A stretch of 64,000 nucleotides of DNA from Chiloscyllium plagiosum (taxonomy: Eukaryota). A program made the position numbers and the translations under genes. Shown here piece by piece: positions 4,290-53,690 of the stretch; position 1 is the stretch's first letter; each line of letters opens with the position of its first letter. Below the pieces are notes generated by a model. It saw only the letters and a list, made by a program, of their open reading frames with translations. It was not told the origin of the DNA and did no database searches. The DNA lies in NCBI RefSeq assembly GCF_004010195.1, contig NC_057746.1:4366428-4430427 (forward strand), read 5' to 3'.

Positions 4290-5850
4290 CAGGTAAAAAC
4301 AAGGACTGCAGATGCTGGAAACCAGAGACTAGATTAGAATGGTGCTGGAAAAGCACAGGTCAGGCAGCATCCAGGAGCAGGAAATCGACATTTTGGGCAA
4401 AAGCCCTTCATCAGAGTGGAGAGATATATGAGAGGGGGGTGGGGGTGGAGAGAAAGAAGCACAGAGTACAATAGGTGAATGGGGGTGGGGTGAAGGTGAT
4501 AGGTCGTGAATGGGAGTCGTGTGAAGGTGATAGGTCAGAGAGGAGGGTGGAGTGGATAGGTGGAAAGGAAGATAGGCAGGTAGGACAGGTCATGAGGGCG
4601 GTGCTGAGCTGGAAGGTTGGAGCTGGGGTGATGTGGGGGAAGGGGAAATGAGGAAACTGTTGAAATCCACATTGATGCCATGGGTTTGAAGTTTTCCGAG
4701 GCGGAAGATGAGGCGTTCTTCTTCCAGGCATCGGGTGGTGGGGGAGCGGCGGTGGAGGAGGCCCAGGACCTGCATGTCCTCGGCAGGGTTGGGGTGGGGA
4801 GTCTAAATTTGGCCACGGGGCGGTGTGGTTGATTGGTGCGGGTGTCGCGGACATGTTCCCTAAAGTGCTCTGCTAGGAGGTGTCCAGTCTCCCCAATGTA
4901 GAGGAGACCACACCGGGAGCAATGGATACAATAAATGATGTTGGTGGATGTGCAGGGAAAACTTTGATGGATGTGGAAGGCTCCTTTGTTGCCTTGGATG
5001 GAGGTGAGGGAGGAGGTGTGGGCGCAGGTTTTGCAATTCCTATGGTGGCTGGGGAGGGAGCCAGGATGGGAGGGTGGGTTGTTGGGGTGGGATTGGACTT
5101 GACCAGGTAGTTACAGAGGGAACAGTCTTTGCGGAAAGCCGAAATGAGTGGGGAGGGAAATATATCCCTGGTGGTGGGGTCCGTTTGGAGGTGGCGGAAA
5201 TGTCGTTGAATGATGTTTTTTATGCGAAGGTTGGTAGGATGGAAGGTGAGCACCAGGGGGCTTCTGTCCTTGTTACGGTTGGAGGGGTGGGGTTTGAGGA
5301 CGGAGAGGCTGGATGTGGACGAGATGCGTTGGAGGGCATCTTTAACCATGTGGGAAGGGAAATTGCAGTCTCTAAAGAAGGAAGCCAACTGGTGTGTTCT
5401 GGGGTGGAACTGGTCCTCCTGGGAGCAGATATGGCAGAGGCGGAGGAACTGGGAATACGGGATGGCATTTTTGCAGGAGGTAGAGTGGGAAGAGGTGTAA
5501 TCCAGGTAGCTGTGGGAGTCGATGGGTTTGTAAAAAATGTCAGTGTCAAGTCGGTCATCATTAATGCAGATGGAGAGGTCCAGGAAGGGGAGGGAGGTGT
5601 CAGAGATGGTCCAGTTGAATTTAAGGTCGGGGTGGAATATGTTGGTGAAGTTGATGAATTGCTCAAACTCCTCGTGGGAGCACGATGTGGCGCCGATGCA
5701 GTCATCAATGTCGGGGAGGAAGAGGTGAGGAGTGGTGCCAGTGTAACTACGGAAGATGGACTGTTCTACGTAGCCAACAAAGAGACAGGCATAGCTGGGG
5801 CTCATACGGGTGCCCATGGCTACCCCTTTGGTTTGGAGGAAGTGGGAGGA
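4290..5850 (-). mobile_element. Penelope-like retroelement, 5'-truncated (RT C-half, GIY-YIG endonuclease, 3' repeat)
   Basis: ORF MGTRMSPSYACLFVG...FLDL...DIFYKPIDSHSYLDYTSSH...AIPYSQFLRL; EEERLIFRLGKLQTHGINVDF; decayed hammerhead-like core at ~4380-4415. Confidence 0.9.
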
Positions 5851-6059
5851 TCGCTGTCTAAATTTAGGATTCTCTTTAAATTCAACCTCTTTGATTGTAT
5901 TTGAAGGTCATCCCCCCTTTTCTCTCTTGGTGTTAATTTTTATGTGATTCATCTCGATGAAACACTGTCAGATAATTAGATATATTAAGATGCTATGTGA
6001 ATGCTAGCTGTTGTCACATCACATACTCTCCAAACCACAAGGTTAAAGGGAGGCTCTCA

Positions 6060-7623: not shown

Positions 7624-8502
7624 TCAATCACATACTTTACGTTTGAAAGGTTTTTTCCCAGTGTGAATACGCCGATGATTTAACAAGCCTGACTGCTGTG
7701 CAAAGTCCTTATTACACACCTCACATGTGAATGGTTTCTCCCCAGTGTGAAGGCGTTGGTGTTCACGAAGGGTTGATGACCGCAAGAATGACTTCTCACA
7801 CACCGCACAGGTGAATAACTTCTCCCGGGTGTGAATTCGTTGGTGAACACGAAAGTCATATGAGCATGAGAATGATTTGTTGCACACCTCACACTTGAAC
7901 GGTTTCTCCCCCGTGTGAATACGCTGATGTGTGCGGAGGTTTGATGACTGTGTGAAGGCTCGGTTGCACACCTCACATTTGAAGGGTTTCTCTCCTCTGT
8001 GAATCCTCTGATGTCTCAGGAGATCGGAGGATTGGGTGAATGACATTTGACAAACATCGCACTTGAATGGTTTCTCCCCCGTGTGATTACTCTGATGTGA
8101 CAGGAGCTTTGTGGACGTTGCAAAAGCTTTATTACACACCTCACACTTGAAGGGTTTATCCCCTGTGTGGATTGTCTGATGGACCAGGAGGTTCGATAAC
8201 TGTTTGAAGGATCGATCACACACGTCACATGTGAATGGTTTCTCCTCTGTATGAATGCGCTGATGGTCACGGAGGTTTGAAAAATGTGAGAACGACTTGT
8301 CACACACCTTGCACGTGAATGGTTTCTCCCCTGTGTGGATGCGTTGGTGTGCACGGAGGTTCGATGACTGTGAGAATGATTTGTTGCACGTTTTGCACGT
8401 GAATGGTTTCTCCCCTGTGTGACTGCGTTGGTGCAGGCAAAATTGGGATGAGCGTGAGAATGACTTGTTGCACATTTTACACTTGAAGGGTTTCTCTGCC
8501 AT
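7624..8502 (-). CDS. C2H2 zinc-finger protein ZNF-A, 10 tandem fingers, no effector domain visible
   Basis: 292-aa ORF with 10 CxxC-x12-HxxxH units and TGEKPF linkers. An 11th finger is broken by a stop, and decayed finger DNA continues to ~7320. Confidence 0.9.
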   Translation of the reverse strand: MAEKPFKCKMCNKSFSRSSQFCLHQRSHTGEKPFTCKTCNKSFSQSSNLRAHQRIHTGEKPFTCKVCDKSFSHFSNLRDHQRIHTEEKPFTCDVCDRSFKQLSNLLVHQTIHTGDKPFKCEVCNKAFATSTKLLSHQSNHTGEKPFKCDVCQMSFTQSSDLLRHQRIHRGEKPFKCEVCNRAFTQSSNLRTHQRIHTGEKPFKCEVCNKSFSCSYDFRVHQRIHTREKLFTCAVCEKSFLRSSTLREHQRLHTGEKPFTCEVCNKDFAQQSGLLNHRRIHTGKKPFKRKVCD

Positions 8503-9769
8503 GAAGCTACCTTTCCGCTAATGGTTATACAACAAATGTACCTTGAGATCTGTGAGCCAATGGAGTCACACTTGAGCAGACATTTCCCTGGAGGAGTGAG
8601 TCACTGGTTCATGAGGCTCGATGAATGATTGAAGCTCTCACCACACTTGGAGCCACTCACACTTCTTCCCAGCCTCACCCTGACTGATCACCTATAGCCG
8701 AACCTTCACCCCTGACCAGTTTCAGATCTGATGAGATGTTAGAATACCCCTGACTCAACTGATTTCCAGATGAAGGTTTAACTGCCCAACCTTCTCTGTG
8801 TTGAGCAATGATTGAAAGGACTGGATGTCTTCCCACAGTTGTGCAGTTGTTCCTTGGGTGATGATCAGGATCTATCTTCAGTGGCTATCCTCTCTGTATT
8901 CTCTGGTGCAGTACAGTGTAATGCTTCTGTAAAACAGGAAAAGGAAACATGATTTCCATGAACTCCCTCCCCTGAGATGGGGAACGGAAGGGGGTTTGGT
9001 GTGTGTGTGTCCGTCTCTGTGTGGTGTCCAGGAACAGACAGCATGACTCCTTTCTTTTCCCTCCCCACCCCTTCAACTTCCCAGGCACTGTGAGGGCAAT
9101 GGAAAAGACAGTTGACGGGTGGAGGATAAAATAAGTTCACAATCCACTATGAGGTTGTGTCATGCTGGTGAAGACTGCTTATACCCTTACAGTATCTGTT
9201 GAGTTTAAAAAAAATTGGAGAAATCATCATTCAATGGAGATGCACCCTCGGGTTCAAAATTACGTGATGAAAACACACTGGGTACAAAGAGCTCGAAGTG
9301 AAGGAAAATGTTGCTTCAGTGTGCCTGAATGAATAGTTCTGATTTATCTTGGGAAATTAGATATATTGCATTTGCTCAGACTGCACATCCCAAATTCAGC
9401 TATCATCCACAGCACCATGCAAAATTATCAAATCAAAGCCCAGGCTTTTGGGAAAGTTCACGGCCTTCAAGTAAAGTTGCAAAATAAGGCAAACACATTA
9501 TAATAAATGGGTGTCCAGGTATGGCAGTTGAAATGAAAGTGTTAAGTGGATTAGTTTCAGAGTACTTTAGGACATATATTGGTCATGAAAGGCTCTATAT
9601 AAATGCACAACCTTGCATTTATATAGTATGAGACAGTGTGGTCAGTTGTTATGGAGAGATTTGAAAAGGCATTCAGATTACAACAGAGAACTGACTATTC
9701 ACAGTCCACAGAAAAATAACCAGCTCTCAACACAACACAGAACTCAAAAAAAAAGAAAATCAGTAACAA

Positions 9770-10630
9770 TCCTCACTCTGCACCTCCCAGGTTATGACAC
9801 CTCACCTGCTTATATTCATGAATGGACCACCAACAAAGGCCAGCCTGGAAATCAGAGGGAAATGCTTCCAATAAACACACTCAATATCCAACACACAGCT
9901 CCAGTCACACAGTTCAGCACAAAGCACCGAGTAAACAGCTCTCTCAGCTGGATCTTCTCACACAGCATAAGGGACATTTCCACCCCTGACTGCCCACAGG
10001 ATAGTCAGACTGCCTGAAGATTGGTGTGGATATTACGGGATACAATTTGTATAAAAGCTGCTCCTTCACTCACCATCTCCTCACTTGGTTTTCAGTCCCT
10101 ATAGGAAGTGAACCAGCTCTGGAAGAGGAAGAGGAGACAATGGGCAGAGTGGGTGGGCTCTCTGATTGACGTCTCTCACAGTCAATCCAAATATTTCTGG
10201 AGCAACATGAGTTTCCTGAAACTTGGGAAACTGACCGGGAAATGGAGGTGACTTTGAGCAGCAGATCAGGTTGAGATTTAAACTTGTCACTGTCCCATCT
10301 GAATAAAACCTCACTTATTGCAGCTACTGTCTCAGTTCGTCTGGAAAATGTTTGACAAGAGATTTCTAACGTGAGAATAGATTAAAAATCACACAACACC
10401 GGGTTATAGTACAACAGATTTATTTGGAAACACTAGTTTACGGAGCGCTGCTTCTTCATCAGGTCGTTGAAAAATAGCATTCTTCATCTTCTGAGGCTTT
10501 GAAACTGACAACGTCAGTGTGGGATAAGTATCTTTGGATGTGTTTGACAGCAAATCAGAAGAGGAAATCCAACAGCATCCATGGCTGCATTGACGTGCAG
10601 TGGTGGGAATCAGCATATGCGCAGGAAGGA
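9770..10630. repeat. ZNF-associated upstream module, copy 1
   Basis: Block recognisably repeated at ~18210-18930, 25860-26280+28505-28790, 33770-34030 (inverted), 38835-39790, 42000-42290 (inverted), 51780-52960 and 53160-53690 (inverted). Confidence 0.85.
10074..10118 (-). other. Predicted 45-nt 5' mini-exon of ZNF-A ending in ATG
   Basis: Minus strand: ctcttcctcttccag|agctgg...gaggagatg|gtgagt (pyrimidine tract plus AG, and a consensus donor). Confidence 0.6.
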
Positions 10631-11971
10631 GAGGCAGAGGTGGGACGGACACTGGAGGGAGAGGGTCATAGGGAATAGGAGCAATTTAGACTCCTCTGTA
10701 CCTCTCCTCCACCCTTTTATATCTTGCCTTCTTCTCTGACCTAACTTGGTTCCTTTCTTCCTCTGAGCTCATCCTGTTTCCGCCCTTTCCTTTGTCCTTC
10801 ATCCTCTCCCTGTCCCTTGCTCTCTACCTCCTTGAGGTGCATTTAACAGATGTGAGGGATAGAAAGTTTTAAACTCTTATCATAAATTTTAAAAATCAAA
10901 GTAGAAATTGTATAAAATATTGTTGAAAATAATAATGTCTTTATGACTATGCTATCTTGTTTTATTCACTCATGGTACATGGGCACTGCTGGCTGGGTCA
11001 GCATTTACTGCCTATCTTAGTTGCCCTTCAGAAGCTGTCGGTAAGCTGCTGCATGAACTGCTGCAGTCCATGTGCTGTCGGTAGCTGCACAATGTTGTTC
11101 AGAAGGGAATTCTATGATTCTGACCCAGTGACAGTGAAAGGATATTTCCAAGTCTGGATGGTGAGTGGCTTGAAGGAGAACCTGCAGGTTGTGTTGTTTC
11201 CATGAATCTGCTGCCCTTGTCCATCGAGATGGAAGTGGTCATGGACTTACAAGGTACTGTCTCAGAATATTTAAATGGTTAACTATTTCTCCTGTTCATG
11301 TAGCATAACTGAAATAAACTAATATCTGTCAGCCTGTAGTTTGCTGAAAAAAAATGTTGGTCATGAATATGACTGACTCTTGGTGCATGAATACCCAAAA
11401 TACTCAACTGTAATATGAAGAGTCACCTCAAACAGGTACAATCAGCAGGAACTCACCACTTCCACTATTTCATCTGGGGCTGCGGTCACTTCTGACATTG
11501 GTACCAGCTTCCTGGCTTATGTTTAATAAACCAGTATCAAAGATCACAAATGTTCAACTTACACTCGATGTAACTTACACTTAAAATACCAATTTCAATT
11601 ACAGTCAATTTTACACTTCATGTAACTGACAACTAAAATGCCAATTTCGATTCCAGTTAAATTTGCACAGATTAAAACAGACACAAGCTAATGCAAACTC
11701 TCAGCTAGAAGTTGTCTTCTTCCGGTTGTTATATATTTGACAAGGTTTTCTAAAGAAAATATTGAAAAAAATTATTTGCGACCAATGAAAGCAGCTTTAT
11801 AAAAGAATGGTACGTTATCTTCTGATTGTAAACACTGACTGGATCATTTTGTCAAACTTAACAGATATTTTAAACACCTTAATTTTTATAGTTTTTGTCT
11901 TAATAAGGTTAATCACAATAATTTGTGTTCATTTTTTATTCGTGCTTGTAGCGAATTTTGCACTGAGATAA

Positions 11972-11994
11972 ACACACACACACACACACACACA
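11972..11994. repeat. (CA)n microsatellite
   Basis: acacacacacacacacacacac. Confidence 0.9.
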
Positions 11995-12781
11995 GTGTGG
12001 AATAGCAGTCAGAAAGATGTGTTTCTTAATGCAGACATCAAGAAGATCCTTATTTTCCAACTGGGCCTGACAAGACAGGACTAAGATTATTTATCTTTAG
12101 GCCTTGGATAAAGAATGCTGAAGTTGTTTTCCCAAATCAAAGCTTGAACTCTGTTGAACGTGAAAGATCTGGATTGAGGTAACAGAAATCCACAGGATTG
12201 GCAGAAGCAAAGGTGAATGCAACTCCCAGGCAACAACACAGATGAGAGGGAATTGTATGTTATTGAGTATATGTGTCACTATTGTCAGACATTCCGAATT
12301 GGCTGGAGTGACATATTTCAAATCATAAACATCAGGAACTATAGAGTGATTGCCGGGGGATGTGGTCTGGTTAATCAATGAGATTACGAAAAGGTCTCGT
12401 TCAGCATCTTCTTCATCTGAGCACAGATCCTTCTCAGACAGGAGGGCCAAATGCCAGTTTCATGAGTTTATTTTTAGCAGCTCCACTGTATATAGTTGTA
12501 GAGTCATACAGCAGAGGAACAGGGCCCTTGGCCCACCATGTCTATTCCAATCAATAAACACAAAAGTACACTAATCCCATTTACATGGAATTACTCTATA
12601 GCCTACTGTGCCCTAGCATTTTAAGTGCTCATCCAGATGATTCTTAAATTTGCAAGAGTACTTGCCTCCACTACCCTCTCCGGCAAGCATTCTGTGTGCC
12701 TTTTCCACCATTCTGTTGACCTGTGTTGTCATCTTCAGGGACTTCTACACCAAGATCCCTTTATTCCTCAGTACTGCCAAA

Positions 12782-13676
12782 GGATGGGGCAATGGGCTGA
12801 GGAGTGGCAGGTGGAGTTTAATTTTGATAAATGTGAGGTGCTACATTTTGGAAAAGCAAATCAGATCAGGACTTACAAACTTAATGGTAAGGTCCTAGGG
12901 AGTGTTGCTGAACAAAGAGACCTTGGGGTGCAGGTTCATAGCTCCTTGAAAGTGGAGTCGCGGGGAGATAGGATAGTGAAGAGAGAATGTGCAAACTCCA
13001 CACAGTCAGTCGCCTGAGGCGGGAATTGAACCTGGGTCTCTGGCACTGTGAGGCAGCAGTGCTAACCACTGTGCCACCATGCCGCCCACAATTGGTCAGA
13101 GCATTTTGAGAATAGGAGTTGGGAAGTCATGTTGCGCCTCTACAGGACATTGTTTAGGCCATTTTTGGAATATTGTGTGCAATTTTGGTCTCCGTCCTAT
13201 TGGAAGGATGTTGTGAGATTTGAAAGCGTTCAGATAAGATTCACTCTACAAGGAATTTGCTAGGGCTGGAGGATTTGAGCTATTGCGAGAGGCTGAATAG
13301 GCTGGGGCTGTTTTCCCTAGAATGTTGGAAGCTGAGGGACATAGATAGGGTAACTAGACAAAGTCTTTTTCTTGGGGTGGGGGAGTCCAGAATTAGCTGG
13401 CATAGGTTTAGGGTGAGAGGGAAAGATATAAAAAGGACCCAAGGGACAACCTTTTCATGCAGAAGGTGGTCCATGTATGGAGTGAACTGCCAGACGACGT
13501 AGTGGGGGCTAGTACAATTACAACATTTAAAAGGCATCTGGATGGGTATATGAATAGGAAGGGTTAGATGGATATGGGCTAAGTGCTGGCAAATGGGACT
13601 AGATTAGGTTAGGGGATACCTGGTCGGCATGGACAAGTTGGGCCGAAGGGTCTGTTTCTGTACTATGACTCTATGA
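12782..13676 (+). mobile_element. CR1/HER1 LINE 3' part nested in an older minus-strand CR1
   Basis: MGQWAEEWQVEFNFDKCEVLHFGK; 3' tail gggccgaagggtctgtttctgtactatgactctatgac. Confidence 0.9.
12983..13087 (-). mobile_element. HE1-type tRNA SINE, 5' part
   Basis: Minus strand gggcggcatggtggcacagtggttagcactgctgcctcacagtgccagagacccaggttcaattccc (A and B boxes). Confidence 0.85.
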
Positions 13677-18209: not shown

Positions 18210-18930
18210 ATTTGATATAATGGGATACAATTTGTATAAAACTGCTTCTTGCCTATGGCCATGCTCATCTGAAAATGTCCAATCTTGACTGAGCTTGGAA
18301 GCTCAGAAAACTCAAGACCTGGTTAGTACTTGGACGGCAGATTGCTGGGAATACCAAGTACAGAAGGCTTAAGGGCTCTTGTGTCATAGTTTCTGCCTCC
18401 GAGCCAGGAGATTCTGGTTCAAGTCCCAGAGGTGTCCAATAATATCCCTGAACAGGTTGAATAGAAAAATAGGTTTAAAAAACAGCTGCTGCTTCCTTGG
18501 CTTTTCAATCCCTGTAGGAAATGAACCAGCTATGAAGAGGAGAGAATAGGTGGGCTGTCTAATTGATGTGTCTCACAGCCAATCCAAATATTTCTGGAGC
18601 AACATGAGTTTCCCGAAGCTTGGGAAACTGATTAGTGAAGTGGAAATGACTTTGAGCAGCAGATCAGGTGGGGATTTAAACTTGTCATTGTCCCATCTGT
18701 ATATCTTACTTATTGCAGCTGCAGTTCCCCTAGTAAATGTTTGACAGAGATTTTTAGTGTGGGAAAAGCATTCTTCATGATCAGAGGCTTTCGAACTAAC
18801 ATCACTGTGAGATGTGTGTCCTTGGATGTGTTTGACAGCAGAAGAGGAAAACCCACAGCTTCTAAGGGAGCAATGACAATCAGGAGTGGGATCATCACAT
18901 GCACAGGACAGCAGCACACAGGATTGAGGT
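18210..18930. repeat. ZNF-associated module copy 2, interrupted by a 5S-derived SINE
   Basis: gggatacaatttgtataaa...ccaaatatttctggagcaacatgagtttcc matches copy 1. Confidence 0.8.
18251..18482 (+). mobile_element. 5S rRNA-headed SINE with a second tRNA-like segment (SINE3/AmnSINE1-like architecture)
   Basis: 18251-18370 follows 5S rRNA over its whole length (gcctatggccat...cctggttagtacttggacgg...gggaatacc...aggctt). It is followed by a tRNA-like part with B-box ggttcaagtccc and an A-rich tail. Confidence 0.75.
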
Positions 18931-23050: not shown

Positions 23051-24898
23051 TCACAAACCGTTCACTTTCTTTCCATTGTGGATACGTTGGTGTACACGGA
23101 GGCTTCCTAATTGTGAATATGATTTGTGACACATCTCACATTGGAATGGTTTCTCTCCTTTGTGGACACGTTGGTGTGTATGGAGGGCTCGTGCCTCTGA
23201 GAACGAATTGTCACACATCCGGCACTTTAACAATTTCTCTCCTGTTTGAATATGTCTATGTAAGCAGAAGTTTCCTGACTGCGAAAATGATTTGTTACAT
23301 ACCTGACAGTGGAATGGTTTCTTTCGTGTGTGAATACGTTGGTGTGTGTGGAGATTTGATAATGATGAGAATGATTTATTGCATTGCTCGCATCTGAATG
23401 GTTTCTCCCCTGTGTGAATCCTCTGATGGAGCATGAGTTTCAGTGAATTGGGGAATAATCTGTCACATACCTCACACTTAACCAATTTGGCTCCTGTGTG
23501 AATGCGATGGTGTATGTGGGGCTCTCTTGCATGTGAGAATGATTTATCACACAACTCAGAATTAAACAGTTTATCTCTTGTGTGGATGCATTGGTGTGTG
23601 CGGAGGTCTCCTGCTTGAGAGAACGATTTGTCACATACCGTACACTTAAACAATTTATCTCCTGTGTGGATAAGTTGGTGTTTACGGAGGTATCCTGACT
23701 GTGTGAATGATTTGTCACACACCTGACAATGGAAAGGTTTCTCCCCTGTGTGGACACGTTGGTGTGTGTGCAGGTTTGATGATGATGAGAACGATTTGTC
23801 ACACACTTCACATCGGAATGGTTTTTCCCCTGTGTGAATCCTCTGATGGAGCAGGAGTCTTGATGAAGTGGGGAATGATTTATCACACACCTCACACTTA
23901 AATAAACTATCTCCCCTGTGAAGACGTCGGTGCGTGTGGAGCTGTCCTGACTGTGAGAACGACTTGTCACAGATGTCGCACTTAAACATTTTCTCTACTG
24001 TGTGGATGCGTTGGTGTGTACGAAGGGCTCCTGCTTGTGAGAATGATTGGTTGCACAGCCTGCACTGAAACAATTTCTCCCCTGTGTGAATACGTTGGTG
24101 TATGCGGAGGTTTCCTGACTGTGTGAATGATTTGTCACACACCTCACACCGGAAAGGTTTCTCTCCTGTGTGAATCCTTTGATGAAGCAGGAGTCTTAGT
24201 GAAGTGAGGAATGATTTGTCACATACCTCACACTTGAACAATTTCTCTCCCGTGTGAATACGTTGATGTGTGCGGAGGTATCCTGCCTGAGAGAATGATT
24301 TGTTACACACCTCACAATGGAAGGGTTTCTCTCCTGTGTGAACACGTTGGTGTGTGTGGAGGTTCGATGATGAGTAGAATGCTTTGTCACACAATTCACA
24401 TCTGAATGGTTTCTCCCCAGTGTGAATCATCTGATGGAGCAGGAGTCTTGAAGAAGTTGGGAATGATTTGTCACACACCCCACACTTGAACAACTTCTCT
24501 CCTGTGTGAATACTTCTGTGTACATGGAGATGTTCTGACCGTGAGAATGATTTGTCGCACACCTCACACCTGAATGGTTTCTCTCCAGTGTGAATCCTCT
24601 GATGGAGCAGGAGTCTTGATGAAGTGGAGAATGATTTATCACACACCTCGCACTTGAACAATTTCTCTCCTGTGTGAATACGACGGTGTACGCGGAGCTG
24701 TCCTGACTGTGAGAATGATTTGTCACACACCTCACAACGGAATGGTTTCTCCCCTGTGTGGATACGTTGGTGTATGTGGAGTTTTGACGATAGCGAGAAT
24801 GATTTATCACATTGCCTGCACATGAATGGCTTCTCCTCTGTGTGAATGTGGTGGGACATGAGGAGGGTTGATGATGATGAGAATGATTTATTGCACAT
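23051..24898 (-). CDS. C2H2 zinc-finger protein ZNF-B, 22 finger units (about 19 intact)
   Basis: 615-aa ORF of tandem fingers with TGEKPF/TGEKLF linkers. Units 1, 17 and 20 are degenerate. Decayed fingers extend to ~22300. Confidence 0.9.
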   Translation of the reverse strand: MCNKSFSSSSTLLMSHHIHTEEKPFMCRQCDKSFSLSSKLHIHQRIHTGEKPFRCEVCDKSFSQSGQLRVHRRIHTGEKLFKCEVCDKSFSTSSRLLLHQRIHTGEKPFRCEVCDKSFSRSEHLHVHRSIHTGEKLFKCGVCDKSFPTSSRLLLHQMIHTGEKPFRCELCDKAFYSSSNLHTHQRVHTGEKPFHCEVCNKSFSQAGYLRTHQRIHTGEKLFKCEVCDKSFLTSLRLLLHQRIHTGEKPFRCEVCDKSFTQSGNLRIHQRIHTGEKLFQCRLCNQSFSQAGALRTHQRIHTVEKMFKCDICDKSFSQSGQLHTHRRLHRGDSLFKCEVCDKSFPTSSRLLLHQRIHTGEKPFRCEVCDKSFSSSSNLHTHQRVHTGEKPFHCQVCDKSFTQSGYLRKHQLIHTGDKLFKCTVCDKSFSQAGDLRTHQCIHTRDKLFNSELCDKSFSHAREPHIHHRIHTGAKLVKCEVCDRLFPNSLKLMLHQRIHTGEKPFRCEQCNKSFSSLSNLHTHQRIHTRKKPFHCQVCNKSFSQSGNFCLHRHIQTGEKLLKCRMCDNSFSEARALHTHQRVHKGEKPFQCEMCHKSYSQLGSLRVHQRIHNGKKVNGL

Positions 24899-26169
24899 CG
24901 CAAGTGAATGTTTTTATTCCTATCTGAATGTGCTGGTCATTCATCAGACCAGATGGTCATCTATATTCCAGGTTACACGCCTCAGATTTGAACAATCTCT
25001 CCCTGGTATAACTGTGTCAGTGATACTGGAGCGTAATTGACTTCACTCACTATTGAAAATTTCCTCTACTAATGTAATTGCTATTATTTGAACAGACTTA
25101 CACAGATGCACCTTGTACATTAAGAAAGATTACCAATTTCAGACTTGAATAGCCTCCAACTTATGAGTCGGTGATTCATGAAACTTGATGAATGATTGAA
25201 GCTCTCATCATAACTTTGAATTGCTCACACTTCTTCCCAGCCTCAACTCGACTGATCACTCACAGTCGAATGTTCAGAAAGGTTGGTTCTGTTGGAATAA
25301 TCCACACCACTGACCAGTTTCAGATCTGATGATATGTCAAAGCCCCCCTCACCTGACTGATTTCCAGATGATGGTTCACTGCCCAAACCTCTTTCAGTCG
25401 AGCAATGATGTGATGGGACTAGATGTCTTCCAACAGATGTGCATTTGTCCCTTGAGTTATGGCCAAGATCTGTCTGCTGCATCTATGATCTCTGAATTCT
25501 CTAGTATAGGATGGTGCAATTCTTCTGTAAAACAAGAAAAGGCAGTACAATTTCATGCACATCCTCTCCTCCTTTGTGAAAAGCCTGATTTCTCAGACTT
25601 GTTTATTCACACCTGTCCATGATGTCACTGTTGCTGACCAGGTGAACATTTGTTGTCCTTTAGAATGGAGCTGTTTAACCATTACATTCTCCAGCGTGGT
25701 GTGGGGCTTTGGTAGTTGTGGTGGGGTGCTATTGTGAGAATGTTAAATCCAAAATGCTGCGAAGAAAGAACTTACAGCATTTGACCACAGCGATAAGTCA
25801 GATAACACTAAATAACCAGCTCCCAAACACACAGAAGACACAACAAAAGGAAATCACTCAGAATCCTCATACGCTCTGCGCCTCCCCGATAATTACACCT
25901 CACCCTCTCATATTCAGGAACGTGGCATCAACAAAACTCAGCCTGGAAATCAGAGGGAAATGCTTCCAATAAACACATTCAAAATCCAACGCACAGCTCC
26001 AGTCAACAGTTCAGCACAAAACACCGAGTAAACTTGCTCAGTAGGATCGTCTCACACAGCATTAGGGACATTTCTACTCGATTGTCCATTGCACAGTCAG
26101 ACTTCCTCAACATCGGCGCGGCTGTTATGGGATAAAATTTCGACAAAAAAATCATACTTCTTTACTCAC

Positions 26170-26215
26170 CATTTCCTCTCTTGGTTTCTCCGTTCTGAAA
26201 GGAAATGAAACAGCT
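26170..26215 (-). other. Predicted 46-nt 5' mini-exon of ZNF-B ending in ATG
   Basis: ctcttcctcttccag|agctg...gaggaaatg|gtgagt, paralogous to 10074-10118. Confidence 0.6.
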
Positions 26216-30479: not shown

Positions 30480-30836
30480 AATTCACCAAACCCCTCACAA
30501 TCCCGCTCCGAACTACATTACCCATGCTGCATGTGGGCCACACGCCTTCATCGTGAGGAGCGACAGTTTGGAATCAAGAAAGAACCTGTCCGTGGTCCCT
30601 GGCGGGAATTGTAGTTCCGTACCGCAAGCGTTTGGGAGTTCAAATCTGAGAGCGCGCGAGTTCGAGCGGTTGTTAACGTGGTCGGTGCTGGAAATGGAGG
30701 TGCGCCTCTGTTAATGGCGTCACCATGGCAACGGGAACCGGGATCATAACTTCTTATTCTGAAGAGTCCTTCAATTAAACTCCAGTTTTCAGTTTCGAAG
30801 AACGTTGTCACATTTGCAGTTTCTCAGATGGTAAGT
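30480..30836. promoter_or_regulatory. CpG-rich promoter with ZNF143/Staf-type motifs, RFX X-box and a plus-strand first-exon donor
   Basis: Dense CpG patch. ACTACATTACCCATGCTGCA at 30512-30531, ACTACAATTCCC on minus at 30604-30615, GTCACCATGGCAAC at 30719-30732, YY1-like AATGGCG at ~30713 and CAGATG|GTAAGT at 30830/30831. Confidence 0.7.
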
Positions 30837-32329
30837 CTATTATTTATCAGTCTAAATAAATAGTTTACTTGTAATACTGATGAGAGGGTAAAGTTTGCCA
30901 GTATCCGATCATGATGTCGTACCTCAGTTTATACGATTGTGTACTGAAGAAAATGGAGAGCCGTTTTCACTCCTACAGAGTGCAACTCCATGACTCTTTT
31001 AGGTCACTCTTCGGAATCTCTTTAAATTATCGTCTCTGACTTCTACTGATATACATTCTACCTTTGTTCTCAGTGGCTGGTGGCAAGGTAAAAATATAAA
31101 AGTTTGATATTCCCACTTTCAAATACATCTCCCCACTGGTTCTGAAGCTCCTGGCTTCCATTTAGGCCCTGTCTTGGTTAAAATTCAGATTTTAGATGCA
31201 GCTCTGATTTCAATATTGAAAAACACCATAAACCGACTGGGGAAGATGTAAAACACATTGAAGAGGACTGAAGTGGGAGTTCAATCACCCTGTTCTCTCA
31301 CAGTGATCAGACAAGATTGCACGTTTCTTTGCTAGATGGTTTATTTGACCATATATATGTTCCTGATACAACTGGCACCATAAGCAGCCTGAAGGTACAA
31401 GAGGGGCACAGTAGTAATATGGCATTCATTAGTTATGGGAGTGGACAAATATTTTTGTGGCCTCCCTGGTGCCAGGATCAAATATGCAACAGAGTACTCA
31501 CACAACATTCTTTGGTGGGAGGGTGAACAGTCAAAATTGTGGTCCTTTGGTACCAATGATTTCGGCTAGAAGGAAGATGTTATTCTGCAATGCATATTTA
31601 GGGTATGAGGTAGAAAGTTAGCAAGCCGGACCTCAAATGTAGTAATCTCTGGATTACTCTTGGAGCCTTGTGCTGGTGAGTTCAGGAATAGGATGATAAG
31701 ACAGATGAATACTTAGGAGGAAAAATGGTACAGGAGGGTGAGCTAGGAGGATCTGACCAAAGTCGTCACTCTGTACCTCCAGGTGTAAGATTCTAAACAT
31801 TTACCATTTTGGTATGAGGAGAAAGATACTGGAAATCACAGCTATTGTAACACCCAGTTCTTCTTTCAAAGTCCTAACCTCAGCTGGTGACAGGGATCCA
31901 TATGGGGTTGTGAACTCCTTTATAACCATAGCAGAGATTCCTCCTCTTCTCTCTGTTGCTCAGTTTTTGCCATGCCTCCTGGAACTGCACATAGAGACTT
32001 TGCTTCACTGTATAAAAAGGCATTGCAGAGGTGTGCTTGCTTTCCAGGCTTGTATGAAGGCCACTTGTCCTGTTAGCAAAGAAAGCAACTATCATTGCAT
32101 TATTTTTGGCACAATGTTGTCTGGCTTTTTAAAAAATTCTGTCTATACAAGAGATATGGTTTTCTCCAGGGGAGGCTATGTTCTTTTATTAAATTAATCC
32201 TCTCAGATCACCCCTTACATCTAGTTCCCCTCCTGTTGTTTGTTGGTATCCCATTGTCTCATTCTAATTTTTTCTCTACCTGTTTATTTTGAAAGTGTGC
32301 CTCATTCCAAGTTCTATTTCCCATCTTCA

Positions 32330-35453: not shown

Positions 35454-35925
35454 AAGGATTGTGCTGTACTATACCAGAGAATACAGAAAGAATAGACACC
35501 CCAGAAAGATTCTGACCATTGCCCAAGGAACAACTGCAAAACTGTGGAAAGGCATATAGTTCCTTTGCAACATTGCTGAACACAGAAAGTTGGGCAGTGA
35601 AACTATCATCGGGAAATAGGCCGGGTCAGGAGGCTTTAACATACCATCAGATCTGAAACTAGTCAGCAGTGTGCCGTCTTCCATCAGAACCAACCTGTTT
35701 GAAGATTGGGCCATGAATGATCTGTCAGGGTGAGGCTGGGAAGAAGTATGAGTGGGATCCAAATGTGGTAAGAGCTTCAATCATTCATTAAGTCTCTCAA
35801 TGATGCATTCCTATAAGTGAGAGACTGTTCAATTGTGAGGAGGGCTTGCCAGGCTCCAGATCTCCTAAATGGACAAGGTGCATTTAGGTAGCCACATGGA
35901 AGATAAACTATTCAAGTGTGTGTGT
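35454..35925 (+). pseudogene. Plus-strand ZNF paralogue ZNF-E truncated at its first finger
   Basis: Acceptor ttttacag|aagg at 35453/35454 and a linker homologous to the other units, then MEDKLFKCVCV and an abrupt break at an inverted repeat. Confidence 0.7.
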
Positions 35926-36869
35926 GTCCAACCACCTGGCCGAAACTTACTGTTGTCCCTCACTTCTCGACTAAAAGCTGAAGGTGAAAGGGCTAAGGTG
36001 AGCTGGTCCATGAGCAGGTATGATGACATGGTGAGGCTGGTGAGTGAAGGGTTTTCACAGTCAGTGTATCTCCTGGTTGATTAAAGCATTATTTTACATT
36101 TGTCTTCACTGAAGAAGATATTAGAAATCTCCCAAAAATTAGAGAACAATGTACGGGGGAAAATGAGGACTTGATGGGAGTTAGTATTTGTAAGAAGGTT
36201 TTGTTGGAGAAATAAATGGGACTGAAAGCTAATAAGTCACTGGAACCTGATATTCTACATTCCAGAATGTTAAAGAGCAAAGCTATTGTGATGAAAAATG
36301 TATGATTTTTATAAATATGGCTGCAAAAGATATTTTTGAGACCTTTTTGATTTGCACTTATTGGGACAATTCACATGATTGTCAGTTTAAGGATAAAACC
36401 AACATTAGTCATACATTAAAATGCTGATGGGTTGGCAAGTAGACTCAGATTGGTGGAGACATTTCTGTGGCAAATGCACTCATTAATACTGATTGACAGT
36501 TAACTGCTAGGCTTTTCCTAATTTTACATCAAGCTGGTTTGAGTCTGGGCATTGAGAAAGGGAGAGTGAATTGTTATCATCTGTTTTGTTCAATTGAAAC
36601 TGGTGCAGTATATGTACATTGTGATGATTCTATGGCTTTACAAGATGTATTTTGTTCTGGTCTCTTTTAGAAGAGAGGTTTTAAGACAGAGGTAAGAAAC
36701 TGTCTATTCAAAGCTATTAAACAGCTTATGAGGCCTTGGGGATTTTGTTTTAAAATTTTGTTTCAAATCTCAAACAAAGAAATTTTGAGATTTGAGTTTA
36801 AATTGTGCAAGACATTGAGTTTATCATTGGGAAATCAGGGAAAGTTAGTTTCGCTTCACATGTAGAAAA

Positions 36870-37910: not shown

Positions 37911-38834
37911 AAGAAGGAAACATGATTTCGTCCAATTCATTTTTCCCTTTTCTGAAGGAGATAACCCTTCAGAGACAGTTCCACAGAGAGTGCAACTCTG
38001 CCCTTCTTTTGTGTGGGAGGTGACAAGTGGGGAAGTGTGAAATTAGATGCATGCCCATTCTTCTTCATCATTTGACTGTCACAAACCCCGTTTCCAGCAG
38101 GGACACGGGATAGTGATCAGGAGCAGGCAATGTGGCTACTTTGTTTCCTTAAACCAGGCCCCTAACTTGCCAGGCACTGTGTGGGCCATGGAAAAGACAC
38201 GTAGATGGTGTGTGAAACTGATTATCAGTTCACTGATGTCTTGTGATGTGCTGTAAAGATCAGTGTTTCTCTGACTGAGAAAAAAAATTATTCAGGAGAA
38301 ATGTTAATTCAATGGCGATTTTGAAATCAATGTCCTTGCTTAGCAAAACGATATGAAGAAAAAACACTGAATGGGAGGTGCTTGAAGCTGAGGAAAATAT
38401 TGCTTAGTATCGCTGATTAAAAGGTTCTGCTTTATCCTGGGAAATTAAATACATTGCGCTTGCTCAGACTACACTAACCACATTCAGCTATCAGACATAG
38501 CACTGGGAAAAACTGTCAAATCCAAGCCCAGGTTTTTGGGAAAGACTAAGGCCTTCAGGTAAAATCTTTAAAGAAGGTATTAAAAAAAAAATCAATAAAT
38601 GTGACTCCGGCTTTAGCAGATGAATTGTTATGTTTGCTGGATTAACAATCCAGAGATTGAGTTCTGATCCAACCACAGAAAGGAACATGAAATGAAAAAA
38701 TAAAAATAAGAACAGTGGATGCTGGAAATCAGAAACAACAACATTAAATTATAATTGGAAACCGACTCGTCGATCTCTGCTGCTCATTTAGTTCCACATG
38801 ATCCTCCTTTCTGTCGTGTTCATCTTACACTATC

Positions 38835-39790
38835 AGAATATCCAACACACAGCTCCAGTCAAACGTTCAGCACAAAGAAACGAGTAAATAGCTCTCAGCT
38901 AGATCTTCAAACACAGCATAAGGGACATTTCCACCCCTGTCGGAATTCCTGAAGATTGGTGTGGACTGTAGCGATTATAACGGGGTCATCCAGGGTGATC
39001 TCTGAGAATAGGAGTTAATCTGGTACAATCGGATAGCTCCAGCTGACAGATAAGAAAGAAAGGTTCTGCACACACACAACATGGGTGCTGGGGAAAAAAT
39101 AAACACTACCGCAGTTAGGCGGTAGTGTGGGGGAGGAAAAAAAGCAAAAAAAAACAGACATTTTAATACAAAAAAAAAGAAAAAAGAACAGAAAGGTCAG
39201 ACATCCTATTCACTCTGAGAGCTGGCTTTTGGGAAGCTGGACAAGTGTCAAGCGTTCTCCATGTGTAAATAAAGGGTGACTTTTTAATGGGATACTGTCA
39301 TCTGTGGAGTTATTTCATGGATACTGTGGGATACCATTTGTATAAAAGCTGCTCCTTCACTTACCATCTCTTCACTTGTTTTCAGCCCCAACAGGAAGTA
39401 AACCAGCTCCAGAAGAAGAGAGAATGGGCAGGGTGGGTGGGCTCTCTGATGTCTCTCTCAGCCAACTTTTTTATTATTTCAAAAATATATTTTATTCATA
39501 AATTTTATCTGCAGTACATGCAAAATGTCCTAAAACAGTTCTGCTCAGACTTTACAGAGAAAATAAAAAACAAGCAACACATTAAAATTTGACATTCTTC
39601 AGAGCTTCCTTGCATTTGCATAAAAAAGGCATTTTTCTACTCATGCAGGAAACTATTTACATTCATTTTGAGGCTACAGGGGGCTCTGATAACTGACCAG
39701 GCCCTCATTATACTTTGGCAGAAAGACCTCAGATGGTGGTCTTTACCTACTGTGCCTGTAGCTTTGGAAACTGACCAGCAGATCGAGTTT
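38835..39790. repeat. ZNF-associated module copy upstream of ZNF-D, with nested insertions
   Basis: aatatccaacacacagctccagtcaaacgttcagc and tataaaagctgctccttcacttaccatc match copy 1. Confidence 0.75.
38967..39317 (+). mobile_element. Solo LTR inserted in the ZNF module
   Basis: TG...CA ends, AATAAA near the 3' end, and a 5-bp TSD tggac/tggat splitting the module sequence gtggat. Confidence 0.6.
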
Positions 39791-45299: not shown

Positions 45300-46412
45300 T
45301 TACTTAATGGGACTCCCCCCTGTGTGGATTATCTGGTGTCGCAGAAGGCTCGATGACTGTGTGAATGCTCGGTCACACATCTCGCACTTGAAAGGCTTCT
45401 CACCTGTGTGGATTGTTTGATGTTGTATTAGGTGTGATGACTGCGTGAAGGCTAGGTCACAAATTTCACATTTGAAGGGTTTCTCGCCTGTGTGAATTCG
45501 TTGGTGTCTATGGAGGTTCGTTAACTTTGAAAATGATTTGTCACATATCTCACAGATGAAGGGTTTCTCCCCTGTATGAATGCGCTGGTGAGCACGGAGG
45601 CTTGATGATTGCGAGAATGATTTATCGCACTCCTCACATGTGAACGGTTTCTCACCAGTGTGAGTGCGTTGGTGCCTTGCCAGGTCTGACGATCTTCCAA
45701 AGCCATCACAACACACCACACACTTAAAAGGTTTCTCCCCTGTGTGAATTCTTTCATGTGTCAGGAGATCGGATGATTGAACAAAAGCCATCATACAAAC
45801 CTTACACTTGAAGGGCTTTTCCCCTGTGTGAAACCTCTGGTGTGTCAGCAACCTTGTAGATGTTGCAAAAGCTTTATCACAAAGCTCACATTTGAATGGT
45901 TTCTCTCCTGTGTGGATTGTTCGATGAACTTGGAGGTGCGATAACTGTGTAAAGGCTTTGTTGCACACCTTGCACGTGAATGACTTCTCCCCTGTGTGAA
46001 TTTGTTGGTGTACACGGAGGTTTGTTAACTGTGAGAATGATTTGTCACACTCAGGGCACGTGAATGGTTTCTCTCCGGTGTGAATGCGTTGGTGAGTGCG
46101 GAGGTTCCACGACCGTAAGAATGACTTGGCGCAGATTTCACATGCAAAGGATTTCTGGACAGTGTGAATATGTTGACATTGCACCAGATCCGATAATCGT
46201 CCAAAACTCTCACTCCGCACTTCACTTTTGAAGTTTTTCTCCCTTGTGTGGATTGTCTGATGTACTAGAAGATTGGATAACTGTGTGAAGGCTTTGTCAC
46301 ATACGCCACACATGAATGACTTCTCCCCTGCATGAATGCACTTGTGAGCATGGAGGTTCTCTGACTGTGAGAATGATTTGGAACACACCTCACACTTGAA
46401 GGGCTCCTCCAT
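45300..46412 (-). CDS. C2H2 zinc-finger protein ZNF-C, 13 finger units (12 intact)
   Basis: ORF 45300..46502 with likely ATG at 46412 (MEEPFKC). Decayed, frameshifted fingers lie upstream at ~46420-46920. Confidence 0.88.
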   Translation of the reverse strand: MEEPFKCEVCSKSFSQSENLHAHKCIHAGEKSFMCGVCDKAFTQLSNLLVHQTIHTREKNFKSEVRSESFGRLSDLVQCQHIHTVQKSFACEICAKSFLRSWNLRTHQRIHTGEKPFTCPECDKSFSQLTNLRVHQQIHTGEKSFTCKVCNKAFTQLSHLQVHRTIHTGEKPFKCELCDKAFATSTRLLTHQRFHTGEKPFKCKVCMMAFVQSSDLLTHERIHTGEKPFKCVVCCDGFGRSSDLARHQRTHTGEKPFTCEECDKSFSQSSSLRAHQRIHTGEKPFICEICDKSFSKLTNLHRHQRIHTGEKPFKCEICDLAFTQSSHLIQHQTIHTGEKPFKCEMCDRAFTQSSSLLRHQIIHTGGSPIK

Positions 46413-47149
46413 TGTGTGAATTGTCTGGTGTGTCAGAAAATTGAAGAATTGGATACAGGCCAGCACACAAACCTCATCCAGAGAGTTGTTACCCCATATC
46501 AAATGTCTGGTGGTGCATCAGGAGGTTTGCAAGTGTTCAGAAAGCTTCATCACAAACCTCACATTTGAAGAGTGTCTCTCCTTTGTGGGTTATCTAATGG
46601 ACCAGGAGTCTTGATGACAGTGAAACAGATTGGCATGCAGCTTACATGTTGAGCAACTTCTCCCCTGTTTGAATTTGTTGGGGTATTCAGAGGTATTTTA
46701 ACTATGAGATTGCTTTGTCACACACCCACACATGAATGACTACTCACATCTGTGAATATGCTGGTATCTGCAGAGGGTCAATAACTTCCAAAATCGTTTT
46801 GTCACACATCTCAAACTGGATAGCTTTTTCACCAATGTGGATACACTTGTGTCTCAGGATTGTTAGTGACTGTGTGAAGTCCTGGTCACACATTCCACTG
46901 CAAACAGTTTCAATGCCACATTGCTCTTCAGAGTTGAAGCCTGCATGTTATGAGATCTTATGAAACTGTGGAGTCCTCTTCACAAAACTCATACTTGAGT
47001 AGCTCCTCATCTGTAGGAGTAAATCAGTGGTTCATGAGACTCAATGAATGACTGAAGCAGTCACCATACTTGAAGCCCATTCATGTATTTCCTCAGCTTC
47101 ATCTTCTCTGTGTTGAGCAATACTGTCAAAGGAACAGATCAGTGAATTT

Positions 47150-50848: not shown

Positions 50849-51980
50849 TTGTATTGCTTTCATGGGAACAGGCTGCGACTTGCTGAGTGAGGTGCAGAAT
50901 TATAGGATCTGAGCACAGGCTGACAGAAGATTTTCTGACTCTGAGATTATGCACAGAGAGAGAGAGAAAACTATGGACTGCAGCCTGTGTGGTCAGCAGA
51001 GAGGAGAAGATGTCATTTCTGTGCACTGCAAGATAGTATGTCAGAAGGAACATGGTTTCTAGTTGAATAGTTACAATATGACAATCTAAAGACTTTGGAA
51101 AATCCATATTGGTGGGTCAGAGATTGGAGGGGTCCTTAGTATTGGTAGATAGTTCAGACTTCTCTGGAAATTCAGAGAAATAGCTTCTGATGGCCACTTA
51201 TGTTTCTGCGAAAAAGAGAAATGTGACCCAGTTGAAAGCTAATGGTGACGTTGGATTTGTCCCTGTAAAAATTATGATTCAGCAAACAAATATGATTATG
51301 GTAAGGACTATTTGGTCATATTACAAGTTAAAGGGAGTAATCATTTCTGTCGTTTAATGTTCACTTGCCAACAAGGTTGTGGTTAGTCAATGTTATTTTA
51401 AATTCATTTACTTACTGAGTACCTGTCAATCGGAAATCCTTCGCGCACTACCTTTAAGTGGGTCACTGAGAATTCAAATAAATTATAAATGATCAATGTC
51501 AACAGAGACTGCAACAGTTTCTCAGTCAATAATCACAAAGAAAATCATCTTGTCATTACAGTATGTGGGCATTTGCTGTGACGACATTGGTCACTATTAA
51601 AACATTACGACAGTGACCACATTTCAAAAATACGCCATTGGTAGCTGGGATATCCAGTGGTTGTGAAAGGTTCCACATAAATTCAAGTCTGTCCTTTTCT
51701 CTTTTTCGAGAACGTTATGAGAGAAGGTTGTTGGAGATCTTGAACGGCTTTGAAAAGTACATCGGAAGGGACATAAAATGAACACACTCAATATCCAACA
51801 CACAGCTCCAGTCAAACAGTTCAGCACAAAGCACCGAGTAAACAGCTCTCTCAGCTGGATCTCCTCACACAGCATAAGGGACATTTCCACCCCTGACTGC
51901 CCACAGGATAGTCAGACTGCCTGAAGATTGGTGTGGATATTATGGGATACAATTTGTATAAAAGCTGCTCCTTCACTCAC

Positions 51981-52025
51981 CATCTCCTCACTTGGTTTTC
52001 AGTCCCTATAGGAAGTGAACCAGCT
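51981..52025 (-). other. Predicted 45-nt 5' mini-exon of ZNF-C ending in ATG
   Basis: Same exon sequence as 10074-10118, with both splice sites intact. Confidence 0.55.
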
Positions 52026-52099
52026 CTGGAAGAGGAAGAGGGAGAATGGGCAGAGTGGGTGGGCTCTCTGATTGACGTCTCTCACAGTCAATCCAAATA

Positions 52100-52905
52100 C
52101 GTCTGATTTGGAAGAGCCGGTGTTGGACTGGGGTGGCCAACGTTAAAAATCACACAACACCAGGTTATAGTGTAACAGGTTTATTTAGAAACACTAGGTT
52201 TCGGGGCGCCGTTCCGTCATTAGGTGATTGTGGAGTAAGGTCATGATCACAGAATTGAGAGCCAAAGGAGTCCAGTGTCATGGCGATGTGATACATTAAA
52301 CAATTTTGGATTAACTCTTCCATCTTTTTGAATCGGATATGCTGGTTCCAGTTCTTTGATATGTAAATCCCAGAACATCTTTTAAATTACATTCTCAAGA
52401 CAGCTCAGCTTTTCTCACAAAAGGTGTGAAGTCTGTCTGTGTCCCAATGTTGAGTCAGACTGTCAAGTCCTGTGCATTGTTTTACAGAGTTTTACATGGA
52501 TTTTTCATCCAGTTTTTGAGCAAAATAGGATGTAATTCTGCAAAACTGCACGAATCCATGGAAAACTGTAAAACTATGCAGAGGGCTTGTCAATCTGACT
52601 CAACATCCAGATACAGACTTCACACCTTTTGTTCGGAAAACCGAGCTATTTTAAGAATGTAATCTAAAAAAGTTCTGGGGTTTACATATCAAAGAATATG
52701 AACCACCATGTCCCATTCTAAAAGGTGAAAGAAATAATCTAAAATTGTTTAATGTATCATATCTCCATAACACTGGACTCCTTTGGCTATAAATTCCCTG
52801 ATCATAATCTTACTCCACAACCACCTGACGAAGGAGCGGCGCTCCGAAAGCCAATGCTTCCAAATAAAGCTGTTGGACTATAATCTGGTGTTGTGTGATT
52901 TTTGA
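52100..52905. mobile_element. Fold-back Penelope-derived element with ~300-bp inverted arms
   Basis: 52143-52440 is the reverse complement of ~52608-52905. Flanked by caaata direct repeats inside the ZNF module. The same family end occurs at 10381-10470. Confidence 0.75.
52820..52862 (+). ncRNA. Hammerhead-like core in a fold-back element arm
   Basis: CTGACGA-a-ggagc ggc gctcc-GAAA-gc caat gc tt. The stem I partner is unclear. Confidence 0.4.
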
Positions 52906-53159
52906 CAAATATTTTTAGCACAGCATGAGTTTCCTGAAACTTGGGAAACCGGTAGAAATGAGGTTCTTCCATAATACTTGACAATAAATTCCCACTTGAC
53001 TCCCCAAATCAGCCGGTTGCATTGTTAATGTCATCTTTCTGGTCACACTCTTTCATTTCTGTGCCCATCCCCACGATATCCCTCTCTTTAGTTCCCCTTC
53101 ACTTGTGCATTTATTGATCCTACAACTGCATGTTGCTTCTGCTTCTGCAATACGTGAAA

Positions 53160-53690
53160 TTTTATTCGGATGAGACAATGACAAGTTTAAATCCCCAATT
53201 GATCTGCTGGCCAAAGGTCCCTATTTCCCCAGTCAGTTTCCCAAGTTGCAGGAAACTCGTGTTGCTCCAGAAATATTTGGATTGACTGTGAGCGACATCA
53301 ATCAGGGAGCTATTGTCCATTCTGCCTATTGCCTCCTCTTCCTCTTCCAGAGCTGGTTCACTTTCTACATGGACTGAAAACCAAGTGAGGAGATGATGAG
53401 TGAAGAAGCAGCTTTTATACAAATTGTGTCCCATAATATCCACACCAATCTTCAAGCAGTTTGATTATCCTGTGGGTAGTTAGGGGTGGAAATGTCCCTT
53501 ATGCTGTGTGAGAAGATCCAGCTGAGAGAGCTGTTTACTTGATGCTTTGTGTTGGACTGATATGTTGGATAATGTGTGTTTATTGGAAGCATTTCCCTTC
53601 TGAAATACAGGCTGAGTTTTCTTAATGGCTCATTCCTGAATATGAGAGGGTGAGGTGTAATTATCTGGGACGTGCAGAGTTACAATGAAT
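53160..53690. repeat. ZNF-associated module, inverted copy with dead donor (GT>AT)
   Basis: cctcttccag|agctgg...gaggagatg ATGAGT at 53341-53401. Confidence 0.8.

Follow-up and report, generated by a model that had tools for sequence, protein, structure and literature searches.

Gene organization of the window

The window, the whole stretch of 64,000 nucleotides that was analysed (C37:4366428-4430427), belongs to a gapped genome assembly of 3.56 Gb in 101,977 contigs and sits within a cluster of tandem C2H2 zinc-finger (ZNF) genes. The clustered genes code for C2H2 fingers in tandem arrays with TGEKP-type linkers in a single exon, and tetrapod KRAB-ZNF genes likewise carry the tandem C2H2 array in one last exon. 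The three finger ORFs scanned revealed fingers only and no KRAB domain. The units and associated features are listed in Table 1.

Table 1. Features of the window, with positions numbered from its first nucleotide.
Feature	Position	Strand	Remarks
Unit A main ORF	7624..8502	-	292 aa; 10 C2H2 fingers; begins MAEKPF; no other domain
Unit A, rest of 5' UTR in finger exon	8503..8884	-	two further upstream ATGs; decayed finger remnants near the 3' end
Unit A upstream ORF, codons 2-14 and TAG after splicing	8885..8926	-	MKHYTVLHQRIQRG, then stop
Unit A homogenised block	9870..10199	-	spans about -125 to +205 relative to the donor; probably comprises promoter, first exon, donor and the beginning of the intron
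Unit A ATG-ending exon, 3' end	10074..10118	-	ATG 10076-10074; donor GTGAGT 10073-10068; 5' boundary putative
Motif-like elements in the block	10103..10187	-	predicted binding; includes a pyrimidine tract
Inverted GATTGAC/GTCAATC pair	10187, 10170	-	
GACGTCA	10173	-	presumably CRE-like
CCCACCC	10157	-	presumably a GT box
ACTTCCT	10109	-	presumably ETS-like
Truncated relic copy of the block	18496..18908	-	
Unit B finger exon	23051..25524	-	upstream ORF ends after 8 aa; 19-finger ORF 23051-24913
Unit B ATG exon	26170..26215	-	22% from consensus; escaped homogenisation
CpG-rich second promoter type	30480..30870	+	ACTACA motifs resembling those of ZNF143/THAP11 at two sites, near 30512 and 30604
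Unit E exon	35454..35930	+	frame of upstream ORF intact; no finger after MEDKLFK start; pseudogene
Unit D	37917..39465	-	block decayed; acceptor at 37917 mutated; intact finger ORF lacking
Unit C finger ORF	45300..46517	-	405 aa; family-type exon start not found
Unit C second near-identical block	51777..52105	-	SINE-like sequence adjoins at about -125
Decayed head-to-head copy of the block	53145..53680	+	differs from consensus by 9%; AT in place of the donor GT; not followed by a gene within the window

A first-pass annotation had described stretches ending in ATG and followed by GTGAGT at 10074-10118 (45 nt), 26170-26215 (46 nt) and 51981-52025 (45 nt), and these match letter for letter. The GTAAGT at 39359-39364, the CAG/AAG exon starts at 8926, 25524 and 35454, the AGATG/GTAAGT at 30830 and the mutated unit D acceptor, which reads TGG at 37917, are likewise present, and the four peptides given for the short upstream ORF (uORF) of units A, E, D and B were correctly written. 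For two units the described pattern is not confirmed. Unit E has no C2H2 finger, and the ATG/GT of its promoter type is missing from the other 10 of 11 copies; convergence of that promoter type on ATG/GT was rejected, the one at 30830 being private to its copy (1 of 11). For unit C (51981) no CAG/AAG partner exon was found.

Protein matches to the family leader were confined to catshark and bamboo-shark gene models, which identifies the source as a cartilaginous fish. The UTR exon seen at 8503-8926 and in paralogues has been incorporated into protein predictions from Scyliorhinus torazame and Chiloscyllium punctatum, indicating that the decayed leader is old and has been mis-annotated as coding. 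A catshark model fusing a coiled-coil protein to this exon was considered as a source of an effector domain and rejected, its N-terminal part not being found in the sampled units; that part gave one strong match, at about 1.62 Mb of C37, and three of lower strength elsewhere than C37. Within the ZNF cluster, at C37:1619437-1621591, there are coding exons of acidic and coiled-coil-like character that match a hypothetical protein of catshark. Elsewhere in the window, broken reverse-transcriptase and GIY-YIG-like frames, which we take to be Penelope-like, occupy 4535-5907 on the minus strand, and a 204-bp tandem dimer with 98% likeness is located at 47659-48070.

A near-identical block at the 5' ends of ZNF paralogues

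Paralogues were sampled from 1.4 Mb of contiguous C37 sequence (115 kb of it N) together with the window. Exon starts were located through the UTR sequence downstream of the uORF, which yielded 77, and 7 that did not align at the exon start were dropped to leave 70. The sample was contiguous rather than ranked by likeness to unit A, a ranking that overstates conservation of the uORF.

The region of the ATG exon gave 67 hits, of which 59 cover the exon; 53 of these 59 differ by less than 6% from the consensus over -125..+100. A copy of the block lies within 15 kb upstream of 53 of the 70 genes, with introns of 647-11,425 nt, and 50 of the 53 gene-paired copies end in ATG/GT. For 46 gene-paired copies the median divergence from consensus was 1.6% over -120..+200, compared with 10.7% for the UTR. 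Pairwise divergence was 0.031 in the block and 0.201 in the UTR, and reached 0.321 in the first 252 nt of the finger ORFs (406 in-register pairs from 30 genes). Of the 86 places at which an exact 29-mer at the donor was found, 80 fall in the 1.5-6.0 Mb interval of C37, 2 on further large contigs and 4 on small ones; the control pattern gave 0 matches. At 5.3 Mb of C37, full-block copies were 98-99% identical to the same consensus and two partial copies 91-94%. The unit A block (9870..10199) is 0.3-0.4% from the paralogue consensus and 97.6% identical to that of unit C, with divergence stepping up to 10-23% beyond +200. The most uniform part is -50..+50, and the least variable zone, -50..-31, showed 2 changes in 1040 sites. 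There was no rise of G+C in the block (0.43-0.52 inside, 0.43-0.48 outside) and almost no CpG. The block is likely the promoter and first exon of dozens of divergent ZNF paralogues.

SINE-like or other unrelated sequence repeatedly adjoins the block at about -125 to -110 and rarely lies inside it (near 52105 and in several other C37 copies). Near the stray copies of the block on C22 and C32, neither a ZNF array nor the family UTR was present within the 20 kb examined. In the C32 copy, an exactly preserved patch at about +17..+46 holds the palindrome ATACAA-A-TTGTAT, and a second inverted fragment lies nearby.

Splicing of the ATG exon

Transcripts from four runs (X1, X5, X7 and X19, three of them only guessed to be RNA) were compared over 8500-12900, with a listing that covered all but 6 joints and 383 loose ends. 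Among the joints listed, 10074 was connected to 8913 by two X1 contigs, to 8870 by one X1 contig and to 8919 in X7; in X19 one raw read each joined 10074 to 8913 and to 8919, and for X5 there was no joint to 10074. The letters intervening at these joints are paralogue exon starts, two of the four intervening strings matching sampled paralogues, and the same end of the ATG exon is joined to four different exon starts in transcript contigs. One X1 contig departs from the sequence at 8927 and carries 16 letters belonging to the ATG exon, and is either the junction of unit A or that of a very close paralogue. Splicing from 10074 to exon starts of the family is therefore confirmed, while the specific 10074 to 8926 junction proposed in the first-pass annotation is fitted by a contig that a very close paralogue would fit as well. 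The broader claim, that a spliced upstream ATG places a short uORF before KRAB-less ZNF ORFs, holds, since the splice is seen in transcript contigs and the frame reaches the fingers in 0 of 70 paralogues.

The ATG stretch had been regarded as an internal mini-exon, which the transcripts do not bear out. Contigs run unspliced across 10118 (10074-10157 in X7 and 10085-10237 in X1), and neither an upstream exon joined at 10118/10119 nor a skipping isoform is present among the joints listed for 8500-12900. In a gap-free head-to-head pair of intact genes the donors are 1.24 kb apart and a spacer of 460 bp is unshared, leaving no room for a common upstream exon. Conservation extends 80 bp upstream of the proposed acceptor, with motif-like elements, and CpG promoters number 11 for 70 genes, too few to serve most of them. 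The ATG exon is thus quite probably a first exon. Counter to this assignment, one paralogue that is possibly expressed (the X1 junction may be its own) has lost everything upstream of about -57, a loss that fits an acceptor better than a promoter. The annotation had also placed the exon where tetrapod genes carry the KRAB exon. Compared with the tetrapod gene layout and its KRAB exon slot, the position of the ATG exon would match that of a ZNF first exon and not the KRAB slot. Exon inclusion as a toggle of the uORF is likewise disfavoured, the geometry and the RNA pointing to a first exon in nearly every transcript.

Constraint on the uORF

Substitutions per site over codons 2-14 were 0.113 in the 70 paralogues, compared with 0.119, 0.105 and 0.113 in the next UTR blocks. 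The TAG is kept in 75% of the 70, which is the median retention of any trinucleotide; the stop position and the QRIQ core, previously thought to be conserved, are not conserved beyond chance. The pN/pS ratio of 0.51 is lower than the median of 0.76 for overlapping control windows, 8.7% of 219 windows being as low. The uORF is exactly 14 aa in 36 of 70 paralogues (24 of 52 intact genes and 12 of 18 others), compared with 29 in neutral simulation (p 0.06), and frameshifts numbered 14 against 23 expected (p 0.03). An excess of in-frame indels rests on one recurrent 9-nt deletion. Further upstream ATGs average 3.9 per gene, and the frame of the main ATG is distributed evenly, 13/13/13, over 39 genes. 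The ATG of the exon showed 1 change in 159 sites compared with 0.7-1.0% in its flanks, a comparison that has no power inside a homogenised block; the ATG is near-invariant because the entire surrounding 330 bp are homogenised. A structured RNA was not indicated by folding (z -0.59), and an Rfam scan gave a single SL1 match, located off the exon, at chance level (E 0.36).

These results indicate at most faint constraint on the uORF, with marginal hints (p 0.03-0.09) set against a substitution rate, stop retention and length that match neutral UTR; exonic splicing signals could also be the cause of such constraint. The uORF drifts like the adjacent UTR, contrary to the idea of a selected uORF, and is likely a leftover start codon rather than an on/off switch. 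The caution given in the first-pass annotation, that conservation may reflect paralogy, was right for the peptide. If translated, the uORF would be present constitutively and, with about five upstream ATGs in all, its effect on translation would at most be a dampening one. A related class is that of conserved-peptide and reinitiation-type uORFs (GCN4/ATF4 type). As in that class, reinitiation would be possible after a first uORF that is short and lies far upstream of the main ATG, but in the shark genes there is no conserved peptide, conserved stop or second inhibitory uORF.

Origin of the exon ATG

A single reading frame of the paralogue consensus, with 7 stops in 160 codons, contains the exon ATG, a pair of decayed fingers (18 and 15 bits; codons 105-147) and the main ATG, located 480 nt downstream of the exon ATG. 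The in-phase arrangement of the exon ATG has a 1-in-3 chance and could be fortuitous. Finger remnants occur just upstream of the main ATG in 23 of 39 genes and in the first 240 nt in 2 of 70. The remnants upstream of the main ATG indicate that the ORF once extended further upstream, from which it follows that the exon ATG is likely an old start codon, now a relic. The family ancestor would have been translated from the exon ATG into the fingers; the ancestral N-terminal part would then have decayed into UTR and the downstream ATG of MEEKPF taken over.

Homogenisation of the block

Divergence rises smoothly on both sides of the block, from about 1% to 10-16% at 300-400 bp, with the steps and tract ends falling at different places copy by copy. 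The segment -250..-130 is dispensable, since 12 of 43 intact genes lack it or have other sequence in its place, yet it is diverged by a median of 2.9% in the 31 that keep it. Among the variants, -70 C>A is present in 13 copies and +166 G>T in 15; the probabilities of recurrence at neutral rates are 2e-11 and 4e-14, respectively, and the two variants occur in all four combinations (4/9/11/24). The four-gamete test was failed by 34 of 55 site pairs, and positive association between sites was limited to pairs within about 110 bp; r2 against distance overall was not significant (rho -0.15, p 0.27). The two copies most alike in their UTRs (1.0% apart) show a difference of 4.1% in the block. The tree built from the UTR has a star shape, with 6 of 43 branches well supported, so that a tree-based conversion test has little power. 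The mosaic of variants and the fading identity are the trace that exchange between paralogues in short tracts would leave. Overall, the block of about 330 bp probably represents the promoter and first exon, its uniformity being likely due to recurrent gene conversion between paralogues; the ATG is likely a relic and the uORF unconstrained. Breaks or exchanges would start close to the exon and donor, and with a sister gene as the repair template tracts of a few hundred bases would be copied, so that identity fades with distance. Homogenisation through a cDNA template was ruled out since the block includes 200 bp of intron.

Purifying selection alone, in which a dense shared element comprising promoter and intronic enhancer co-regulates the ZNF genes and needs no exchange, is unlikely although several observations favour it. 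The neighbourhood of the exon start and donor is least variable (0.2-1.0%), dead or orphan copies decay to 9-26%, and divergence of block and UTR is correlated per gene (rho 0.36, p 0.013), as shared constraint or history would give. The copy on C32, which lies off the cluster, is 72-75% identical overall but unchanged in two patches, one at the donor and one at about +17..+46, the donor patch being ascertained because the copy was found through the donor 29-mer. However, selection alone leaves unexplained the four-gamete mosaics of non-recurrent transversions, the low divergence of a segment that is missing from 12 of 43 intact genes and the copy-specific tract ends. Since -50..+50 is most uniform and dead copies decay, selection probably acts as well, in addition to conversion, on this smaller core. 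A young mobile element, or an artefact of assembly or polishing that set one consensus before each gene, is the least probable explanation. Near identity, a left edge that is abrupt in many copies (at about -125), the gapped assembly and the two stray copies on other chromosomes would agree with it, but there is one copy per gene, in gene orientation and aligned in register with homologous flanks that are older and show gradual divergence, 80 of the 86 exact matches lie inside the cluster, and the copies bear private as well as shared variants. The block is moreover collapsed into one contig in the RNA runs, ending in both X1 and X5 at 9831, the point where the paralogues start to differ. This collapse argues against an assembly artefact, independent RNA contigs collapsing alike and joining to different paralogues.

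The model of an internal 45-nt cassette exon, the inclusion of which makes a selected 14-codon uORF that throttles ZNF translation, is also improbable. It accounts for the splice in the transcript contigs, the ATG/GT of the gene-paired copies and the pyrimidine tract with near-invariant CAG before the exon, which is on its face a good acceptor. The fall of X1 depth upstream of the exon (about 460 compared with 22 by rough arithmetic) fits an acceptor or a start site alike, and the surplus of 14-aa uORFs and the deficit of frameshifts lean the same way as the model. Against it are the lack of an upstream joint or skipping isoform among the joints listed, the space missing from head-to-head pairs, the neutral rates of substitution and stop retention, and the further upstream ATGs. 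In addition, uORFs of 20 aa or fewer numbered 59 of 70 compared with 58 simulated, the in-frame indel excess changed from p 0.027 to p 0.52 when the recurrent deletion was counted once, and dead copies hold 14 aa more often than intact genes.

A second promoter type

The CpG-rich promoter type with paired ACTACA motifs is represented in the window and by 10 more copies in the C37 samples. In four cases the gene faced by such a promoter has lost or degraded the homogenised block, which suggests promoter replacement. The ACTACA/SBS-like motif was taken from ZNF143-bound promoters in the available passages of PMC3627581.

Comparison with known systems

The tandem C2H2 arrays in one last exon and the birth-and-death cluster resemble those of tetrapod KRAB-ZNF genes. 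Unlike those genes, the three scanned ORFs have no KRAB, the ATG exon joins the finger exon directly, and the main shark promoter type is CpG-poor and homogenised. CpG poverty and the lack of a GC rise also distinguish the block from CpG-island hotspots. The minority shark promoter type is more similar to the tetrapod genes in carrying ACTACA/SBS-like motifs, as far as these are described in the passages available (PMC3627581).

Among known cases the block is closest, judged from the accessible part of the source, to the BGW element of the mammalian BEX/WEX/GASP genes, a non-coding block across the first exon maintained by sustained interlocus gene conversion (PMC1274310). In both systems, clustered paralogues resemble one another much more closely in the block over the first exon than in their coding regions. 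The same passages describe about 20 genes with about 91% identity, raised G+C and cross-species proof, whereas the shark block, analysed in one genome, is present in both orientations across 4.5 Mb, numbers at least 80 copies with about 98.4% identity to consensus, and shows no G+C rise (not required for conversion). The FiNZ-ZNF genes of zebrafish chromosome 4 are also clustered and KRAB-less with highly conserved 5' ends, according to the portions consulted of 10.1101/2022.11.29.518450, PMC6370886 and PMC11620358; in these texts one morpholino fits 447 of 684 start sites and another a 5' UTR stretch in more than 200 genes. FiNZ genes have a coding effector exon of 28 aa (acidic, N-terminal), in contrast to the shark ATG exon that splices to decayed UTR with read-through in none of the 70 paralogues, and in those passages the 5' conservation is neither ascribed to conversion nor extended into promoter and intron. 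In the literature covered, which mostly excluded subscription papers, neither the block nor conversion of promoters among ZNF genes of sharks was found to be described. What is notable is the scale and the lack of GC bias; the kind, a converted 5' element, is already known.

Implications

The invariance of an ATG cannot be taken as evidence that its uORF is selected when the ATG lies within a block subject to conversion. A more tentative possibility, doubtful at present, is that the block is a self-renewing exchange hotspot, in which breaks at the CpG-poor ZNF promoter are repaired from sisters and the initiating sequence is thereby restored, locking at least 80 genes to one promoter, first exon and AUG. 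If so, transcription and translation would be under common control across the family with no effector domain involved, and the common homology could seed duplications and inversions that reshuffle the cluster. The block is a mapped and narrow candidate exchange hotspot in a lineage with unsettled recombination targeting, a partial PRDM9 having been reported in cartilaginous fish in the part of PMC5519329 available. As with the zebrafish FiNZ genes, one target sequence could knock down most of the family at once. In large ZNF families the fingers must diversify under common control, and here the front end is uniform while the rest drifts.
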